Below, one piece after another: positions 745 through 44,864 of a stretch of DNA of 64,000 nt (position 1 is the stretch's first letter; the number at the start of each line of letters is the position of its first letter). The notes below the pieces were generated by a model that saw only the letters and a list, made by a program, of their open reading frames with translations, ran no database searches and was not told the DNA's origin. Source of the DNA: an uncultured Planctomycetia bacterium (GTDB lineage Bacteria > 4484-113 > JAGGVC01); NCBI GenBank assembly GCA_964388445.1, contig CAYMAI010000001.1, positions 336,215 through 400,214 on the forward strand. Direction: 5' to 3'. A program made the position numbers and the translations under genes.

Positions 745-1053
745 TCAGTCCGAGTCTTCCGCCGAGCCGCCGTTCATTCCTTTGATGACCCATTTGCCGT
801 CGGGCGTTTTTTCGACGTACTTTCCGACGCGCTTCTTGGCTTCCTTAAGGTAGCCGTCGCATTTTTTGATGAGAGCGACGCCTTCCTCGAAAAGCCGCAC
901 CATTTCGCCCAGTTTCACGTCTTCGCGCTCGAGTTCGCCGACGATTTCGCGCAGTCGCTCGAACGTTTCTTCGAAGTCCGCGAGCGAGTCCTCACCGCTG
1001 TCAGAAAGTTCTCCGCCTTCGAAAAGCTCCTTGTCTTCCGTCATTTCAATCAC
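745..1053 (-). CDS. xseB: Exodeoxyribonuclease VII small subunit
   Basis: 102 aa acidic helical protein with XseB-like core (FEETFERLREIVGELE...LFEEGVALIKKC); start overlaps xseA stop by 4 nt (GTGA); alternative ATG at 1044. Confidence 0.8.
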   Translation of the reverse strand: MIEMTEDKELFEGGELSDSGEDSLADFEETFERLREIVGELEREDVKLGEMVRLFEEGVALIKKCDGYLKEAKKRVGKYVEKTPDGKWVIKGMNGGSAEDSD

Positions 1054-2426
1054 CTTTCCTTTTCGTCATTTTCGTTAGCCATGCCGGTCGCGTCGGGTTC
1101 GCCCGCCGTTGCGAAAAATGCGCCGCGATGGGCGCGCACGCGTATTTCGTCGCCGGGTTTAACTTCGTTAGCAACGGTAATCGGCTCCGACTTCCCGCGC
1201 CGCGTGACGACGCTGAATCCGCGTTTGAGCTGTTTTTCAAGGTCGCCCGCGTAAATCGCGGAGCGGAATCCGGACAAACCCGATTCGAGCGAGCCGAGTT
1301 TTCCGTCTGCGCCGCGCGCGAGCGCAAGCGACGTCGCCGAGAGGTCGGATTCGCGCCGTGCCGCCGAAATAATTATCGCGGCAATCGTGCGGTGGTCCAG
1401 CGCGCGAGCCGTTTCCGCCCGCAGGCTTTCGATTCGCGCCGGAAGCCCGGTAGCCGCGCCCGCGGCGTCGTCCAAAGTTCTTTCCGCGTCTTCGATGCGT
1501 GCCGAAATAGCGCGCACGGCGCGCAAATCCGCGAGCCGCGCGAAGTCCGATTCGATAGTCCTGATTCGCCTATCGGCAAGCTCGAGTGCTTGTTGCGAAA
1601 GCCGCCCGTACTCGGCCAGAACTATCGGCCAATTGGCGGTGGCGATTTCCATCGCGGCGGTCGGGGTCGGCGCGCGAAGGTCGCTTGCGAAATCGCATAT
1701 CGTAAAGTCGATTTCGTGGCCGACGCCGCTAATCACGGGGATCGTGCAGTTCGCCACGGCGCGCGCGAGCGATTCGTCGTTGAAACACCAAAGGTCTTCG
1801 ATGCTTCCGCCGCCGCGGGCGACGATTACGAGATCGAACTGCCGCGGGTCGCTTTGCGCGGCTTCGAGCGCGGCGATGATTTTCGGCGGCGCCGAGTCGC
1901 CCTGCATAATCGTTGAAAACAGCTTCAGCTCCACGTGCGGCGCGTTTTTGTCGTGAATGTTCAGCATGTCCTGAAGCGCCGCGGTGGTCGGGCTCGTAAC
2001 GATCGCAATGCGGTGAGGAAGTTTCGGAACGGGGATTTTTCGCTCTTCGTCGAACAGCCCTTCCGCCTTGAGCCGGGCCTTGATTTTCTCGAACTCCGCG
2101 GCGAGCGCGCCGACGCCTTTCGGGACGACTTCGCTTACGGAAAGCTGATATTCGCCGCGAGGCATATAAACGGTTATCTTTCCGGTCGCGACCACTTGGT
2201 CGCCGTCGTTAAACGGCAGTTTTTTGCGCCCGTGACCGAACCAGACGCACTTTACCAGCGCGTCCTTTTCCTTGAGGTTGAAATACACGTGGCCGAGGCT
2301 CGATACCGTAGGCTGAGACACTTCGCCGGCGACCGAGACGTGCATGAATAGAGGTTCCGATTCGAGCGCGGCTTTTATGAGCTTCGTAAGCTCGAGCACG
2401 GTAATCGTTTTTCTCGCGGACGACAC
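1050..2426 (-). CDS. xseA: Exodeoxyribonuclease VII large subunit
   Basis: 458 aa ORF with XseA-like N-terminal OB-fold region and catalytic core (IAIVTSPTTAALQDML, VIVARGGGSIEDLWCFNDE, ISGVGHEIDFTICDF); coupled to xseB. Confidence 0.9.
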   Translation of the reverse strand: MSSARKTITVLELTKLIKAALESEPLFMHVSVAGEVSQPTVSSLGHVYFNLKEKDALVKCVWFGHGRKKLPFNDGDQVVATGKITVYMPRGEYQLSVSEVVPKGVGALAAEFEKIKARLKAEGLFDEERKIPVPKLPHRIAIVTSPTTAALQDMLNIHDKNAPHVELKLFSTIMQGDSAPPKIIAALEAAQSDPRQFDLVIVARGGGSIEDLWCFNDESLARAVANCTIPVISGVGHEIDFTICDFASDLRAPTPTAAMEIATANWPIVLAEYGRLSQQALELADRRIRTIESDFARLADLRAVRAISARIEDAERTLDDAAGAATGLPARIESLRAETARALDHRTIAAIIISAARRESDLSATSLALARGADGKLGSLESGLSGFRSAIYAGDLEKQLKRGFSVVTRRGKSEPITVANEVKPGDEIRVRAHRGAFFATAGEPDATGMANENDEKER

Positions 2427-22665: not shown

Positions 22666-23485
22666 CTTTAAGCACCCTGTTCCTGACGAGAGAGGCGGCG
22701 CGAGGATGAAGCGCCTTCAGGACCGAAAGTATATCACGCCTGGTCATTCCCGCGCTTTTCATAATCTCCACGGCGCTCTCCCAATCGTTTAGATTCGCTT
22801 CGGCGATTTTGGTTTCATCCGCGGCGCCTTCCACGACGATTGTGAATTCGCCCCTGTTCATTATGCCCGCTTCCGGCGGCGAGCCTAGCTCGAAAATCAA
22901 AATTTCTTCGAATTTTTTCGTCATCTCTCGCGCCGCAAGCGCCCGGCGTTCCTTTCCGCATGATTCCCGCAATTCCTCGACGAGTTTTTCCACGCGTCCC
23001 GGCGCCTCGAACATCACGCTCGGATGGTCGCGCGCCGCAATTTCGCGCAGCCTGTCCGCTCGCTCGCGGCCTTTGCGCGGCAGGAATCCCTCGAATGCGA
23101 ACCGCTGGGCGGTGAACGGCGCATAGGCGAGAGCCGTCGTAAGCGCGCTTACGCCAGGAATAACCTCGACTCTGATTCCACGTACAAGCGCCGCCGCCAC
23201 AATCTCATGGCCCGGGTCGCTTAGGGTTGGCATACCCGCGTCCGTCACGTACGCCACATCCGCTCCGGCCTCGACTTCGTCCAACAGCTTTGCGATTTTC
23301 GACTCGCCGCTATGCGCGTGCAGGCTGAACAGCCGTCCGGAAACTCCGTACTTCGCAAGCAGGATGCGAGTCCGCCGCGTGTCTTCGCACGCGATAAGCC
23401 CGGCTGATTTCAACGTTTCGAGCGCCCGCAGCGTGATGTCCGCAAGGTTGCCGATCGGCGTGCCGATTATAAAAAGCTTGCCCAA
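22658..23485 (-). CDS. rsmI: 16S rRNA (cytidine1402-2'-O)-methyltransferase
   Basis: N-terminus MGKLFIIGTPIGNLADITLRALETLKSAGLIACEDTRRTRILL is the RsmI tetrapyrrole-methylase-type signature. Confidence 0.9.
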   Translation of the reverse strand: MGKLFIIGTPIGNLADITLRALETLKSAGLIACEDTRRTRILLAKYGVSGRLFSLHAHSGESKIAKLLDEVEAGADVAYVTDAGMPTLSDPGHEIVAAALVRGIRVEVIPGVSALTTALAYAPFTAQRFAFEGFLPRKGRERADRLREIAARDHPSVMFEAPGRVEKLVEELRESCGKERRALAAREMTKKFEEILIFELGSPPEAGIMNRGEFTIVVEGAADETKIAEANLNDWESAVEIMKSAGMTRRDILSVLKALHPRAASLVRNRVLKDD

Positions 23486-37630: not shown

Positions 37631-38443
37631 TCAAACTAAAGCCTCGGCACTGCCGCCCCGGATTCTGCGCCTTACTTTGTCCCACGAATCCGTGATGAGA
37701 AAGCTTTCCCGCGCGTTTTCGACCATCCGCTCGAAAAGCGGAAACGGCACCGCGAAACTCAATACGCCTGCGGGAACGTACGGCCTGGCGGACACGTCGA
37801 ACATTCCCAAAACTGCCCGCGGCTTTTCGGATTCCAGTTCGCGCATCGGCCAGTAAACGATCGAACCGCAACCCGCAGCGAACGGAGCGATAACCGACTG
37901 CGGCGAGTCGTCTTCAAACCCCGACAAAGTGAAAAGTCCCGAAAGTACGTCCGGCGGCGAAAAGAAAATTACCACTTGCGGGTTGTCGGCTTCGGTCAGC
38001 GCGTCCCACCTTTTAAACACCGCATACTTCGCCGGAGCCGAAAACGGCTGCCATTTGTCGAGAAGGCTAATCACGGTTTCAGGCGAGTTTTTATACCTTT
38101 CGCCCTCCATCACGCCGCGTATGCCGCTCGACAAAAAATATTCAAAGCCTTCGCGCAACTCGCCCGTATATCCGAGATAGCGCATCGCCCCGCCGCACTT
38201 GATGTTTTCGCTGCCGAGCGCCAGCCGCTCGCCGCGCCTTACGCGCGCAAGCTCGGCGATTATGCAGCGCCATTCCTTGGCGGGCTCTGCGATTTCCGCG
38301 CCGAGAGTGTCCGCCGAGTATTCGAAAGTAATCGGCAAATCCGCGCAGGGAAAAAACTCGTCCCATACGGCGGCGAAACCTTCCAAAATTCTCTTTTCCA
38401 TAACGCCCTCCGCGACGTTTTTGTCGCACTTCAAGTTTACCAC
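37631..38443 (-). CDS. Hypothetical protein
   Basis: 270 aa, no TM segments or recognised catalytic motif. Confidence 0.45.
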   Translation of the reverse strand: MVNLKCDKNVAEGVMEKRILEGFAAVWDEFFPCADLPITFEYSADTLGAEIAEPAKEWRCIIAELARVRRGERLALGSENIKCGGAMRYLGYTGELREGFEYFLSSGIRGVMEGERYKNSPETVISLLDKWQPFSAPAKYAVFKRWDALTEADNPQVVIFFSPPDVLSGLFTLSGFEDDSPQSVIAPFAAGCGSIVYWPMRELESEKPRAVLGMFDVSARPYVPAGVLSFAVPFPLFERMVENARESFLITDSWDKVRRRIRGGSAEALV

Positions 38444-38513
38444 GCGTGCCGAAGCGATTCAGCCCGAGTTTAACCTTTAATTACCGGGCTTGTGCAGATC
38501 AAATCACATGAAC

Positions 38514-38529
38514 TTTAACATATGTTAAA
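38514..38529. promoter_or_regulatory. Perfect 16-bp palindrome TTTAACATATGTTAAA (candidate operator)
   Basis: Read directly from sequence; lies in the AT-rich stretch between a minus-strand gene start and a GC-rich untranslated region. Confidence 0.3.
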
Positions 38530-38962
38530 TCGTAATAGACTTGTAAAAAATCGCGAACAAAGTTAAAATGTATAAGTCTGTACAATCGGCGAAGAACATG
38601 CTGTATCTTCAGCGCTAGTGCAGCAGGCGAATGGCCCGCCCGGCCGCCATACCGGGCGATGCGGATGTACGAGTGGCCCGGGGTTGCCGCCGGAAGTTCG
38701 CAAAACCGGCAGCAGGCGGATTTTTCCGCCGGATCGCCGGCGGATAAGGCTCCGGCTCCGGCCGGAAGAGGGATGAGGCTTGCGCTGCCAGCCGACGGCG
38801 AAGCAGCGCGGTGGATTCCTAACTCAGTCATCACCGCATCCGGGCGGGAAAGCGTGACCTGCCCGGGTGCGGAATGAATGACGGGTTAAAGAAGCCGGTC
38901 CGCAAATCCAACCAGCGTACCCCGGCAAACGTCTTGGCATTAAAGCGCTTGGCATCGCTTGG

Positions 38963-39002
38963 AAATGGCGGCACCCCCGCCATTTTTTCTTTGCCGTTTT
39001 TT
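38963..39002 (+). terminator. Intrinsic terminator-like hairpin with U-tract
   Basis: 9-bp stem AAATGGCGG / CCGCCATTT with 5-nt loop, then TTTCTTTGCCGTTTTTT; about 85 bp upstream of the sugar transferase gene and closing a ~400 nt non-coding stretch. Confidence 0.5.
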
Positions 39003-39085
39003 GAATCGGCGCTTCCAGCTTGCAGTTTCACAATTGGTTACGCCTCTATTGCTATCCCGGTCTGCCTTTCTGTTAAAATGACGGC

Positions 39086-40522
39086 GTGGCAAACGGCGAT
39101 CCGGGTTACCCCGCATCCAGCGGCGCATCCTCCATCGGCAACCTCGCAAGCGGCGAGGGCGTACCCGTATCTTGGATTCATTTGGTTTTGGAAGCGGCAG
39201 TATTTTTTTCGGCATTCGCGGCGGCGCATACTTTGAGATTCGCCACTTCGATTTTCCCCGCACCGACCGAGTTTATTCCGCTGTCGAAGTACATATATTT
39301 CGCTGCCTTAATCGCTCCGGTGTGGCTTCTTTTGCATCTCGGGCATGGCCTATATTTCCAAAAAATTCACGCTTCGTTTTCGGAGGAGTTCGGCGCGCTC
39401 GTGAACGCCCAAACGCAGGGCTTTCTTATGTTGATTATGCTCAGCTTTTTCGAGCGCGATTTTCCGTCCAGTAGAATCACACTGCTTTTAATTCTGGCGG
39501 CATGTTTCGCCGGCTGCTTGCTTATGAGAATAGCGCTAAGGCTGGCGAAAAACTATATGCTCGCAAACGGGGTCGGCGTGCGGCCACTCATCGTCGTCGG
39601 CGAAAGCGTGCTCGGCGAGCTATTGATAAAACGAATCGAGCAAAACAGGTCGCTAGGTTTCATACTGGGCGAAAGGATTTCAATCGGCGGCGAAGATTCC
39701 GGCGATTGCGTGCGGGTATTGCGTCACCTCATTGCGGAACGCATCGAAACGCCTGCCGTTCTGGTCGCCGCAACGCTGCCGGACGACAAGCTCGCCGCGA
39801 TTATCGCGGAGTGTCATCGCAGCGGCGTGGAGTGCATACTCCCGTCCGAAAAGAGCGCCGCAGCCGGACTGCCGGCTACCGCGGTCACGATGGAAGGCGT
39901 TCCCGTCGTTAAAATCGTTTCCGCGGGCGAACTTGCATGGCTTAGGCTCAAGAAGCGGACATTCGACCTTGCCGTGGTCGCTCTTACGTCGCCTCTTTGG
40001 CTTCCGCTTTTGATTATCGTCGCGATATTATCGCTATTGCTGCAGGGCGCTCCGGTGTTTTTCACTCATCTGCGGCTCGGAAGGCGCGGGCGGATAATAC
40101 CGACGTATAAATTCCGCACGATGGTGAAAGATGCAGACAAACTTCCGCCGCCCGATGAATTCGCGGAAGGCTTCAAGGCGAAAGACGACCCTCGCATTAC
40201 GCAATTCGGCAAAATTTTGCGCAAGACGAGTTTGGACGAGCTTCCGCAAATAATCAATATAATTCGCGGCGACATAAGTCTTGTCGGGCCGCGTCCCATT
40301 GTAACTGGCGAGCTTGAAAAATACGGCGCTTGGGGCGGGCTGCTTTTGAGCGTGCCGCCGGGACTGACCGGGCTTTGGCAAGTGAGCGGCAGAAGCGACC
40401 TTAGCTATGCCCAGCGCGTGGAGCTTGACGCCTATTACATTCACAACTGGTCGCTCGCCCTCGACGTGCGGATACTTTTGCAAACTCTCCCCGCCGTGCT
40501 GAAAAGGCGGGGCGCATATTGA
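39086..40522 (+). CDS. Polyprenyl glycosylphosphotransferase (bacterial sugar transferase, WbaP/WcaJ/EpsL-like)
   Basis: N-terminal TM helices, central Rossmann-like region, C-terminal Bac_transf-like motifs (KFRTMVKDAD, DELPQIINIIRGDISLVGPRP). Confidence 0.85.
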   Translation: MANGDPGYPASSGASSIGNLASGEGVPVSWIHLVLEAAVFFSAFAAAHTLRFATSIFPAPTEFIPLSKYIYFAALIAPVWLLLHLGHGLYFQKIHASFSEEFGALVNAQTQGFLMLIMLSFFERDFPSSRITLLLILAACFAGCLLMRIALRLAKNYMLANGVGVRPLIVVGESVLGELLIKRIEQNRSLGFILGERISIGGEDSGDCVRVLRHLIAERIETPAVLVAATLPDDKLAAIIAECHRSGVECILPSEKSAAAGLPATAVTMEGVPVVKIVSAGELAWLRLKKRTFDLAVVALTSPLWLPLLIIVAILSLLLQGAPVFFTHLRLGRRGRIIPTYKFRTMVKDADKLPPPDEFAEGFKAKDDPRITQFGKILRKTSLDELPQIINIIRGDISLVGPRPIVTGELEKYGAWGGLLLSVPPGLTGLWQVSGRSDLSYAQRVELDAYYIHNWSLALDVRILLQTLPAVLKRRGAY

Positions 40523-42663: not shown

Positions 42664-42735
42664 TGCGGGGTGGAGCGGTGGTAGCTCATCGGGCTCATAA
42701 CCCGAAGGTCGGGGGTTCAAATCCCCCCCCCGCAA
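42664..42735 (+). tRNA. tRNA-Met (anticodon CAT)
   Basis: Manual cloverleaf fold: 7-bp acceptor stem TGCGGGG/CCCCGCA, D-arm GAGC/GCTC, anticodon stem TCGGG/CCCGA with loop CTCATAA, T-arm GGGGG-TTCAAAT-CCCCC; CCA not encoded. Elongator Met versus lysidine Ile2 not distinguishable. Confidence 0.8.
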
Positions 42736-42926: not shown

Positions 42927-44864
42927 TCAATACCCGCCGGAGTCCACGGCCTTCTGCACCTGCAGGAGCAGCTCGACGTTGCTCTTCGTTTTGATGAGCT
43001 TGCTGATGAGCCTGTTCATCCGCTCCGCCTCGTCCATTTCGGCAATCATCTTGCGAAGCTGCCACAGGCAATCCATTTCGTCGGGATTGTAAAGAAGCTC
43101 CTCGTGACGAGTGCCGCTCTTCAACAGGTCGATGGCTGGGAATATTCGCTTGTCCGCAAGCTCCCGCATAAGGTGGATTTCGCTGTTCGCCGTGCCTTTG
43201 AATTCTTCGTAAATGATGTCGTCGAGGCGCGAGCCGGTTTCGACGAGCGCGCTCGAAAGAATCGTCAGGCTTCCGCCGCCCTCGATGTTGCGCGCCGCGC
43301 CGAGAAAGCGCTTGGGTTTGTGCAGAGAGTTCGGGTCGAGACCGCCGGTCAGCGTCTTGCCGCTGGGCGGGCAGGTCAAGTTGTACGCGCGGGCGAGTCT
43401 GGTGAGGCTGTCGAGAAGTATCATCACGTCTTTGCCCTGTTCCACGCGGCGCTTGGCATATTCGATTGCAAGCTCCGCCGTTTGGATGTGGCTTTCCGGC
43501 TTTTCGTCGAACGTGGACGAAATGACGAGGCCTTGGATGTTGCGCTCGAAGTCGGTCACTTCTTCTGGGCGCTCGTCGATGAGTAGTGCGATAAGCTCGA
43601 TTTCGGGATGATTGCGCGCCACGGACGCCGCGATTTTCTTCAAAAGGACGGTTTTGCCGGCCTTGGGTTTCGCCACGATTATGCCGCGCTGGCCGCGCCC
43701 GATTGGCGAAAACAGGTCGAGAAGCCGGGTGCTGGTTTCGAACTGGTCGGTTTCGAGAAATATCCGCTGGTCGGGGTAAATCGGAACGAGCTTTTCGAAC
43801 GGCGTCGGGATACGGTAAGAGTCGGGATAGTGCCCGTTTATTTTGTCGATTTTGACGACGCTCTTATAGCGTTCCTGATCGCGCGGCGGCCTTATGGTGC
43901 CTACCACGACGTCGCCGGAACGAAGTCCGAATTTCTTGATTTGGCTGATGCTTACGTAAATGTCTTCTTCGCCGTAACGGAATTCCTTCTGGCGGATGAA
44001 CCCGTAAGTGCCGTCGGGATGTATATCCAGAACTCCCTTCTGAGCTTCTCCGTCGCCGGACGCCTGAGGTTGATAAGCGGTACGCTTAGCTTGTTGGACG
44101 CGCTGTTCGCTCTTGGGCGGTCTGCCGCGCCTCGGACGGTCGTCGCGCTGAGGTTCGTCCGCGGCGATTTCGTTGTCAATGTCGTCATATACCGGCGCAC
44201 GCTCGGGAGTTTTTTCCCGTGAGCCGAAGTCTTTGCTTACAGGCGGCTCGACGATTTCCTCTTCTTCCTCTTCGTACACTTCCGGTGTTCTGGCTCTGGC
44301 GGGACCGGCCTGGCGAACCGGCTCGGGCCTTTCTTCCTCTTCTTCCCGTTCTTCGCGCACGTATGCCGGCGGCTCGCGCTTTACAACGGGGCGAAGCGGC
44401 TCGCGCTGAACGGCAGGCGGCGAATACTCGCGGCGCGCCGCGGGACGCTGAGGTTCGGGCTCGATTTCGTCCACCCCACCATCCCGGAGTTCGAATTCGT
44501 CTTCGTATTCGTCCGGATCGGGCAAGGGAGCGGGCTTGGGGATCGGCGGCCGTTCGTACGGCTTGCGCGCGGGAACGAAGGAATCTCTGGTCGGCCCGGG
44601 GCGAGACCTTTCCTCCTCGCTCTTGGCATCTTGCACCGCTTCGATTTCCTTGGGCGCTGCGTGCGTTTTGGGCGCTCCCGGCGCACTCACGATGCTTACC
44701 GAAACCTTTCTGAAAAGCACGCGCTCGACGTCCATTATTTCGTCGATGATTTCGTTCTTTTTAAGCTTTCGGTAATTTTTGATTCCCCTTTCCTTGGCGA
44801 GATCGTAAAGATCGTTAAGGGTCATCGCCTCAAGCTCTTCAGCGCTTCTGGACCTGTTCGACAT
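42927..44864 (-). CDS. rho: Transcription termination factor Rho with long low-complexity N-terminal insertion
   Basis: 645 aa; Rho N-terminus (LNDLYDLAKERGIKNYRKLKKNEIIDEI), ~230 aa Arg/Glu/Pro-rich insertion, then RNA-binding and RecA-type ATPase core (Walker A GKTVLL). Confidence 0.95.
   Translation of the reverse strand: MSNRSRSAEELEAMTLNDLYDLAKERGIKNYRKLKKNEIIDEIMDVERVLFRKVSVSIVSAPGAPKTHAAPKEIEAVQDAKSEEERSRPGPTRDSFVPARKPYERPPIPKPAPLPDPDEYEDEFELRDGGVDEIEPEPQRPAARREYSPPAVQREPLRPVVKREPPAYVREEREEEEERPEPVRQAGPARARTPEVYEEEEEEIVEPPVSKDFGSREKTPERAPVYDDIDNEIAADEPQRDDRPRRGRPPKSEQRVQQAKRTAYQPQASGDGEAQKGVLDIHPDGTYGFIRQKEFRYGEEDIYVSISQIKKFGLRSGDVVVGTIRPPRDQERYKSVVKIDKINGHYPDSYRIPTPFEKLVPIYPDQRIFLETDQFETSTRLLDLFSPIGRGQRGIIVAKPKAGKTVLLKKIAASVARNHPEIELIALLIDERPEEVTDFERNIQGLVISSTFDEKPESHIQTAELAIEYAKRRVEQGKDVMILLDSLTRLARAYNLTCPPSGKTLTGGLDPNSLHKPKRFLGAARNIEGGGSLTILSSALVETGSRLDDIIYEEFKGTANSEIHLMRELADKRIFPAIDLLKSGTRHEELLYNPDEMDCLWQLRKMIAEMDEAERMNRLISKLIKTKSNVELLLQVQKAVDSGGY

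Follow-up and report, generated by a model that had tools for sequence, protein, structure and literature searches.

Within the window (the whole 64,000-nt stretch of DNA analysed here), a 684-nt gap separates a DUF169 gene on the minus strand from a sugar transferase gene on the plus strand, a Bac_transf polyprenyl glycosylphosphotransferase at 39086-40522. The length of the gap depends on where the DUF169 gene begins. Its ORF is listed at 37631-38443 (minus strand), with a GTG start at 38443. Judging from the sequence, the true start is probably the ATG at 38401, where a Shine-Dalgarno sequence, GGAGGG, comes just before, and in the database the protein is 256 aa long; it is this start that leaves 684 nt between the two genes. 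No long polysaccharide operon follows the transferase, which stands here as a single gene.

The gap had been described in an initial annotation, made from the letters alone, as a GC-rich non-coding stretch with an AT-rich, promoter-like start, and the base composition agrees with both. GC content is 0.62 over 38576-38992 (maximum 0.685 in 200-nt windows) versus 0.54 for the window as a whole, and it is 0.40-0.49 in the promoter region. The promoter is of the sigma-70 type (38541-38569, plus strand), with a -35 box TTGTAA at 38541-38546 and a -10 box TAAAAT at 38564-38569, and its 17-nt spacer carries a conserved CGCGAAC (38552-38558). This TTGTAA-17 nt-TAAAAT arrangement is the sole sigma-70-like site that a promoter scan reports in 38000-39500, and it places the start of transcription near 38576, 7 nt past the -10 box.

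At the other end lies an intrinsic terminator (38962-39002, plus strand), with a stem of 10-11 bp (38962-38971/38977-38986) and a 5-nt loop, followed by UUUUUUCUUUGCCGUUUUUU. The hairpin reads AAATGGCGG-CACCC-CCGCCATTT at 38963-38985, then TTTTTTCTTTGCCGTTTTTT, and when folded alone it forms an 11-bp stem with a 5-nt loop. The strong plus-strand hairpin and U-tract first noted at 38963..39002 can thus be recognized both as an inverted repeat and in the direct fold. A simple terminator scan flagged 0 sites here, the hairpin being missed by its rule set, so the terminator call is based on the direct fold. From these two signals we infer an RNA of ~415 nt at 38576-38992 (plus strand), with its 5′ end 7 nt past the -10 box and its 3′ end in the U-tract. 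The RNA is single-copy within the window.

Upstream of the promoter, at 38514-38529, lies the perfect 16-bp palindrome TTTAACATATGTTAAA, exact as initially reported. It had been taken to bound the stretch, and it is probably not a boundary of the RNA: 12 nt separate it from the -35 box further downstream, and it lacks conservation, the palindrome form not being kept in the alignment with the close relative L081. One such palindrome is not rare here, as there are 4 perfect 16-bp palindromes in the window versus ~1.1 in shuffles. The three others, CGTAAGCGCGCTTACG, CTTGCGCGCGCGCAAG and TGAAATCGCGATTTCA, are found at 23138, 45460 and 54317. The right half, ATGTTAAA, has no second copy anywhere in the window, and it is seen again ahead of the -35 box in more distantly related loci, L082 and L088/L105, 30-41 nt upstream of CGCGAAC. 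The palindrome may consist of a pair of -10-like boxes set back to back, or it may serve as a regulator site.

Conservation and fold of the predicted RNA

Relative loci were recovered using the transferase as a handle. Two of them, L084 and L085, are from the same species and identical in the region. The locus L081 (and the near-identical L102) has a transferase 79% identical to that of the window and the same DUF169-gap-transferase layout; that both SerRS proteins belong to a single 90% cluster shows how close the two organisms are. More distant relatives recovered are L082, L083, L086, L088, L089, L090 and L103. Searching with DUF169 as a handle gives one close relative, of the L081 lineage, and others ~55-60% identical that are spread across phyla. 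With GuaA as a handle, we also find L105-108, which carry an RNA of the type seen in L088, and L109, with nothing nearby. By GuaA, the relatives of the host have 82-94% identity and the next ones ~60-64%. The only close relatives found to carry the RNA type of the window are those of the L081/L102 lineage.

The comparison with L081 delimits the RNA. Identity is 69% in the RNA body, 68% in the promoter and 83% in the terminator, whose stem is invariant, both substitutions being in the loop. It falls to 42% in the DNA between the DUF169 start and the promoter, and to 30% in the 74-nt spacer between the terminator and the -10 box of the transferase. These flanking values correspond to an effectively random alignment, which means that conservation starts at the promoter and stops at the terminator, with purifying selection limited to this part.

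The RNA folds better than its dinucleotide shuffles on both strands, with z = -5.25 for the plus strand and -4.39 for the minus strand. An RNAalifold consensus of the window and L081 has 104 pairs, all of them standard in both sequences, and 16 show compensatory double changes, a number that comes from a single pairwise comparison and from a structure predicted from that same alignment. As a control, sliding the 3′ partners by 1-3 columns leaves 0-3 double changes, and 35-45% of the cells are then paired. The comparative alignment that the initial annotation had proposed therefore shows a conserved body with compensatory changes well above the slid control, limited to one pairwise comparison because only two lineages (the window and L081/L102) carry this RNA type. 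Shallow alignments give provisional covariation evidence (PMC11234323). The consensus energy is -134 kcal/mol on the plus strand and -105 kcal/mol on the minus strand, where the consensus has 83 pairs and where the G-U pairs of the plus strand turn into A-C mismatches. The better plus-strand consensus agrees with the orientation of both promoter and terminator.

In the fold model, support differs from helix to helix. The weakest part is the long-range closing helices, 38588-38603 pairing with 38923-38938 on the plus strand (helices 1 and 2, with 11 pairs, 2 of them compensatory); the 3′ strand includes the first CUUGG repeat. Helix 6, the hairpin CCCGG-CCGCCAUA-CCGGG at 38639-38658, is invariant between the window and L081 and for that reason gives no covariation information. 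The predicted hairpin at 38738-38764 (helices 11-12) contains the invariant 17-mer CGGAUAAGGCUCCGGCU and has 2 compensatory pairs. The next one, at 38770-38820 (helices 13-15), has strands GGGA...GCGCUGC and GCAGCGC...UCCU around a loop ending GGCGAA, and it hardly varies, showing 2 one-sided changes, both compatible with pairing. The best-supported helix of the model is helix 16, a 22-bp hairpin at 38824-38881 with the conserved loop (A/U)AAGCGUGA, which shows 5 compensatory double changes and 3 one-sided changes, with 0 pairs broken. As an example, G-C becomes A-U and C-G becomes U-A at adjacent pairs of this helix. Towards the 3′ end, the hairpin AAGCG-CUUGGCAU-CGCUU (helix 18, 38943-38960) lies within a 40-nt block that is identical in L081, and inside the same block are three tandem CUUGG(C/A)A repeats (38932-38965).

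The earlier view that the stretch holds no convincing ORF stands. The 72-aa, 111-aa and 120-aa ORFs found in it have no Pfam match, no reading frame is conserved in L081, and indels of 1, 2, 3, 2 and 2 nt with respect to L081 disrupt all frames. The most conserved 40 nt show no synonymous or third-position-type variation, and they extend into the terminator stem. The frame-breaking indels, together with this lack of third-position-type variation in the best-conserved 40 nt, rule out a conserved peptide.

Could the stretch be without any RNA function, that is, a GC-rich spacer, the remnant of a decayed gene or a short coding gene, with its structure being a by-product of GC content? We find this quite improbable. 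GC-rich DNA folds well by default, the minus strand included (z = -4.4), but the dinucleotide shuffles fold much worse, and conservation is far above that of the flanking non-coding DNA. There are stop-free stretches of ~100 codons in both relatives, but the frames are broken by indels and carry no Pfam domain. And even if chance alone will produce some apparent compensations when just two sequences are compared (PMC11234323 warns of such shallow alignments), we observe 16 double changes versus 0-3 in the slid controls, and the conserved part coincides exactly with what lies between the promoter and the terminator.

An independent gene or a transferase leader?

A structured stretch ending in a terminator upstream of a gene can be read in two ways, as the gene of a small RNA or as a riboswitch or attenuator leader of the gene downstream, and the initial annotation had offered both. 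The first alternative is backed by the promoter, the structured and conserved body, and the terminator. The second is weakened by the transferase gene having a -10 box of its own.

That box is an extended -10 box, TGTTAAAAT, at 39071-39079 (plus strand), which lies outside the RNA and is followed by 6 nt and then by the GTG start at 39086. No Shine-Dalgarno sequence precedes this GTG. A box of the TAnAAT type 6-7 nt before the transferase start is found also in L081, L082, L086, L089, L090 and L103, and in L086, L089, L090 and L103 the leaderless layout occurs with no upstream RNA. Elsewhere in the window, at least 8 other long ORFs begin 6-8 nt after a TAnAAT-type -10 box, from which leaderless mRNAs appear to be common in this organism. 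(The start codons listed behind such boxes are at 2426, 4566, 8578, 15833, 39086, 40577, 52086 and 62799; DUF169 at 38401, among others, uses a GGAGGG Shine-Dalgarno sequence instead.) On this sequence evidence the transferase is most likely made as a leaderless mRNA. Since it has its own -10 box, and since the leaderless signature recurs, the RNA is most likely a separate transcription unit and not a riboswitch leader. More generally, where an organism uses leaderless mRNAs, finding GC-rich DNA with a terminator at its end ahead of a gene does not have to mean a riboswitch.

The alternative is that the RNA serves the transferase as a 5′ leader acting in cis (a riboswitch, an attenuator or an antitermination RNA), which we regard as unlikely, and equally so the mode of action that goes with it, in which a ligand or a factor would decide whether transcription stops at 38962-39002 or reads into the transferase. 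The position of the RNA does suit a leader, as it lies on the same strand directly upstream of the transferase and has the terminator at its end, and the order promoter-RNA-transferase is kept in three lineage groups in which the outer neighbours differ. But in a transcript reading through the terminator, the GTG would lie internally, lack a ribosome-binding site and be a poor place to start translation, the relatives that have no upstream RNA keep the leaderless layout all the same, and the spacer from the terminator to the gene is unconserved. A riboswitch or an attenuator is located in the 5′ UTR of its gene, and read-through yields a translatable mRNA; judged by its own -10 box and by the lack of a Shine-Dalgarno sequence, the transferase would not have the RNA in its 5′ UTR. 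An attenuator would also have a conserved anti-terminator pairing in competition with its terminator. The single candidate in the window is 13 nt at 38679-38691 that are 92% complementary to 38967-38979 and can pair with the 5′ half of the terminator; in L081, as read by eye, only 9/13 positions remain complementary.

Polysaccharide loci of other bacteria do use leader-based antitermination. Examples are JUMPstart/ops with RfaH, the leader hairpin of LoaP, and the EAR element of Bacillus eps. What the RNA shares with these leaders is its place ahead of a priming glycosylphosphotransferase gene, in the same orientation, and its intrinsic terminator. It differs from them in having neither ops nor EAR, and in that the downstream gene has its own leaderless promoter and no polysaccharide operon behind it. 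For ops (GGCGGTAGnnTG, at most 1 mismatch), we find 3 matches in the window, which is the chance level, and 0 in 38500-39100. EAR would be expected in Rfam, and the absence of an EAR match follows from there being no Rfam match at all. Neither does any riboswitch family match even at E<=10, nor any known aptamer class or leader family.

We are thus inclined to see here a stand-alone gene for a structured non-coding RNA of ~415 nt, probably a new, lineage-restricted sRNA, and we hold this reading with moderate confidence. The sequence signals of a stand-alone sRNA gene are all present: a promoter, a non-coding conserved body, a terminator, and separation from the neighbouring genes. Among the points that weigh on the other side, wherever the promoter is conserved, the RNA is always directly upstream of the transferase and on the same strand, which also fits a role in cis; and the RNA type is found in only two lineages, the window and L081/L102.

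As a stand-alone gene, it would be transcribed from ~38576 at the sigma-70-type promoter up to the intrinsic terminator near 38988, giving a discrete ~415-nt species whose multi-hairpin fold would be maintained by selection. The RNA would act in trans rather than as a transferase leader, in a regulatory role or with a protein or a second RNA as its binding partner. Its level might be set by a factor that recognises the promoter, through the CGCGAAC spacer and the upstream ATGTTAAA box, and its role might be tied to the transferase or to the synthesis of undecaprenyl-linked glycans of the envelope. As for what it could act on, when the RNA is paired in duplex predictions with the mRNA 5′ ends of its two neighbours, the transferase and DUF169, the results are no better than those for shuffles, and the complement of the repeated CUUGGCAU was not located at gene starts. 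No target, partner protein or conserved seed was identified, and the block at 38932-38965 has no evident partner.

Known RNA families

The RNA matches no known RNA family, and on its sequence we consider it a credible candidate for a new structured RNA family. An Rfam scan had been suggested at the outset, and we performed it with the 4227 models of Rfam 15, using gathering thresholds over the whole window, and permissive filters with E<=10 over 38350-39200. At the gathering thresholds, the only feature of the window to pass is a tRNA-Met at 42664. At E<=10, the region has seven scattered and unrelated sub-threshold matches, the best of which reaches 19.5 bits against a threshold of 45 bits. 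There is nothing at the L081, L082 and L088 loci either.

The initial annotation had seen by eye no hallmarks of RNase P RNA, tmRNA, SRP RNA or the riboswitch classes it checked, and the scan at E<=10 is empty for these RNAs and for all known riboswitches. Still, one may ask whether the RNA could be a highly diverged housekeeping RNA or an analogue of one (RNase P, 6S/Ms1-like, SRP, tmRNA) that Rfam misses. Its size, its GC richness, the strong promoter, the terminator and the single copy are all typical of housekeeping RNAs, and the host is distant from named taxa, with GuaA only ~60% identical beyond the closest relatives. Yet neither the window RNA nor its L082/L088 counterparts match any of these families at E<=10, and at 82% GuaA identity between relatives, a housekeeping RNA does not become unrecognizable. 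We deem this possibility very improbable.

The hallmarks of the individual families lead in the same direction. RNase P RNA is recognized by its P4 helix, with the conserved strands GAGGAAAGUCC and ACAGAA-CCGGCUUA; RF00010 and RF00011 have no match at E<=10, and on reading the sequence the P4 motifs are absent. A tmRNA has a tRNA-like acceptor/T-arm domain and a tag reading frame; no tRNA-like end is seen on reading the sequence, and ARAGORN reports no tmRNA, the tRNA-Met being its sole product in the window. For SRP RNA, marked by the domain IV helix with its GNAR loop and conserved internal loops, RF00169 and RF01854 do not match at E<=10. A resemblance to the SRP-like GAAGCAGC in the hairpin 38770-38820 was rejected, as it has no tetraloop and differs in L081. 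Finally, 6S RNA is a rod-like fold of ~180-200 nt whose ends are paired and whose centre opens into a large bubble; RF00013 and related models do not match, and the fold predicted here is multi-branched, not a rod, and spans ~415 nt.

As to a mobile origin, the two most conserved blocks are not found in viral contigs and no plasmid resembles the region, so there is no sign of derivation from a mobile element.

Counterparts in relatives and comparable RNAs

The promoter is conserved well beyond the reach of the RNA. The 47-nt promoter stretch (38536-38581) is 79% identical to that of L082, whose transferase is only 61% identical to that of the window. The arrangement CGCGAAC...GTTAMAAT is unique in the window, and its sole other occurrences are at the orthologous position of L082, L088 and L105-108. 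The form shared by the window and these loci has a -35 box TTGnAA, then CGCGAAC, and a -10 box (T)GTTA(A/C)AAT. The first transcribed bases would be GUCUGU in both the window and L082, and GUGUCC in L088/L105-108. The transferases of L088/L105-108 are 59% identical to that of the window, and their GuaA 82%.

Behind the shared promoter there is in each case a GC-rich stretch, ~220 nt in L082 and ~375 nt in L088/L105, then a terminator-like hairpin and the transferase. These stretches form a second candidate structured RNA, at 3734-3955 in L082, 98-475 in L088 and 1040-1408 (minus strand) in L105. The L082 RNA and the L088/L105 RNAs are 62% identical over 167 nt, with 8 compensatory pairs in a 36-pair consensus, and have in common a three-way junction and a hairpin whose loop contains GGUCGAA.

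Are these RNAs homologous to that of the window? A BLAST comparison of the window RNA with the L082 and L088 RNAs aligns only the promoter. A covariance model built on the core of the window RNA (R1) has no match in the L082/L088-type RNAs, and the reciprocal model of L082, L088 and L105 (R2) gives one weak partial match, at 38678-38740 in the window (E = 0.12), which we reject as evidence of homology since L081 lacks it and the window/L081 consensus contradicts it. The shared 7-mers GCGGTGG and CAAATCC were also rejected, being at chance level (our own estimate is ~5), and so was a shared hairpin with a loop ending GG(U)CGAA, present also in L089, as such a loose motif with a 6-bp stem is common throughout the loci. 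Neither R1 nor R2 matches the upstream regions of 80 unrelated transferase genes. The bodies of the L082 and L088/L105 RNAs are therefore not detectably homologous to that of the window, and what is conserved across genera is the promoter, not the RNA.

In L089, where no long RNA precedes the transferase, a 12-bp hairpin (2890-2935), made of GCGUCGAUCGCG and CGCGAUCGUCGC around GACUUAACGGUCGAA, is found upstream of that gene. The loop of this hairpin ends in GGUCGAA as in L082 and L088, which may be due to chance or may mean that the hairpin is what is left of the same element.

The linkage to the transferase is the other constant. Outer neighbours change from DUF169 and RimI in the window to BacA and LarA in L082, a dockerin protein in L105 and LarA in L088, and the order promoter-RNA-transferase is the only conserved linkage. 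This suggests that the role of the RNA is tied to the transferase, or to undecaprenyl-linked glycan synthesis, or that the two are under shared control. On the other hand, L086 has a transferase 78% identical to that of the window and no RNA upstream. Both of its flanks differ from those of the window and the gene may be a relocated copy or a paralogue, so L086 is weak evidence that the RNA is dispensable. Scanning genome contigs with the transferase gives only distant transferases (at most 35% identical over the full length, up to 52% in the C-terminal catalytic domain) with no RNA.

How does the RNA compare with other systems? For the GacA-dependent RsmX/Y/Z-CsrB RNAs and the sigma-E-dependent sRNAs, promoter boxes are better conserved than the RNA body. 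The same is seen here, where the promoter, the ATGTTAAA box and the first transcribed bases can be aligned across genera and the body cannot. A Csr/Rsm-type sponge RNA carries many GGA motifs, mostly in hairpin loops. Unlike such sponges, the RNA here has no GGA enrichment (11 in 417 nt versus 9.0 +/- 2.5 in shuffles; in L081, 9 versus 7.8) and no known regulator site, and it is longer and more structured.

Large RNAs offer another parallel. To our knowledge, few RNAs of more than 400 nt with a complex fold exist outside the universal ones, and each one that has come to be understood, such as OLE and raiA, has revealed unexpected biology. The raiA motif RNA, OLE RNA and similar large structured ncRNAs, some with functions found only recently and others with none assigned, come from long GC-rich intergenic regions (PMC10861870, PMC9723947, PMC11109978), and such regions are enriched for structured RNA elements of this kind (PMC11109978, PMC8632094). 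The candidate RNA has in common with raiA and OLE that it is a stand-alone, non-coding gene in a long GC-rich intergenic region, with many hairpins and invariant islands, and that at ~415 nt it is well above the size of typical base-pairing sRNAs. It differs in having no sequence or structure match to any of these RNAs in Rfam 15, in being found in two close lineages versus hundreds, in a far thinner covariation support, and in having no identified associated protein genes.

A bolder proposal would make it the first representative of a new class of large complex-folded RNA from an uncultivated, deep-branching lineage, acting as an RNP in the priming step of undecaprenyl-linked envelope glycan synthesis, which strikes us as rather improbable. 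Within that proposal, the L082 and L088/L105 types would be fast-evolving counterparts with the same promoter and position in sister genera, which is just as doubtful. If the stand-alone gene is real, a lineage known only through metagenome-assembled genomes contributes a new large structured RNA, one without known relatives. It would also have an unusual pattern, in which the promoter is conserved across genera, the RNA bodies have diverged beyond recognition, and an enzyme that initiates envelope glycans always adjoins. With two close lineages its reach is limited, which makes it a candidate and not a discovery.

A metagenome scan with the promoter pattern AAANNNCGCGAACWWWNGTTAMAAT gives 11 matches, about the number expected by chance, in unrelated low-GC contigs; L088 itself is absent from the collection, and three of the 11 matches are one IS-like element. 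In three low-GC contigs the promoter string TTGAAAAA-ACGCGAACATATGTTACAAT precedes an ORF (L091 at ~1076, minus strand; L092 at 564; L093 at 12743). We take this ORF to resemble an IS605-family TnpB/OrfB transposase-associated protein, and the match is probably a coincidence created by the search pattern.

Two further observations concern the window at large. The 8-mer CTTGGCAT/ATGCCAAG has 6 copies in the window versus 1.45 expected, two of them inside the rho gene, whose mRNA carries the complement. The Rho factor itself (42927-44864, minus strand) has 645 aa, its N-terminal and RNA-binding domains being set apart by ~230 additional residues; its length is 605 aa in the L105 relative and 540 aa in L109.
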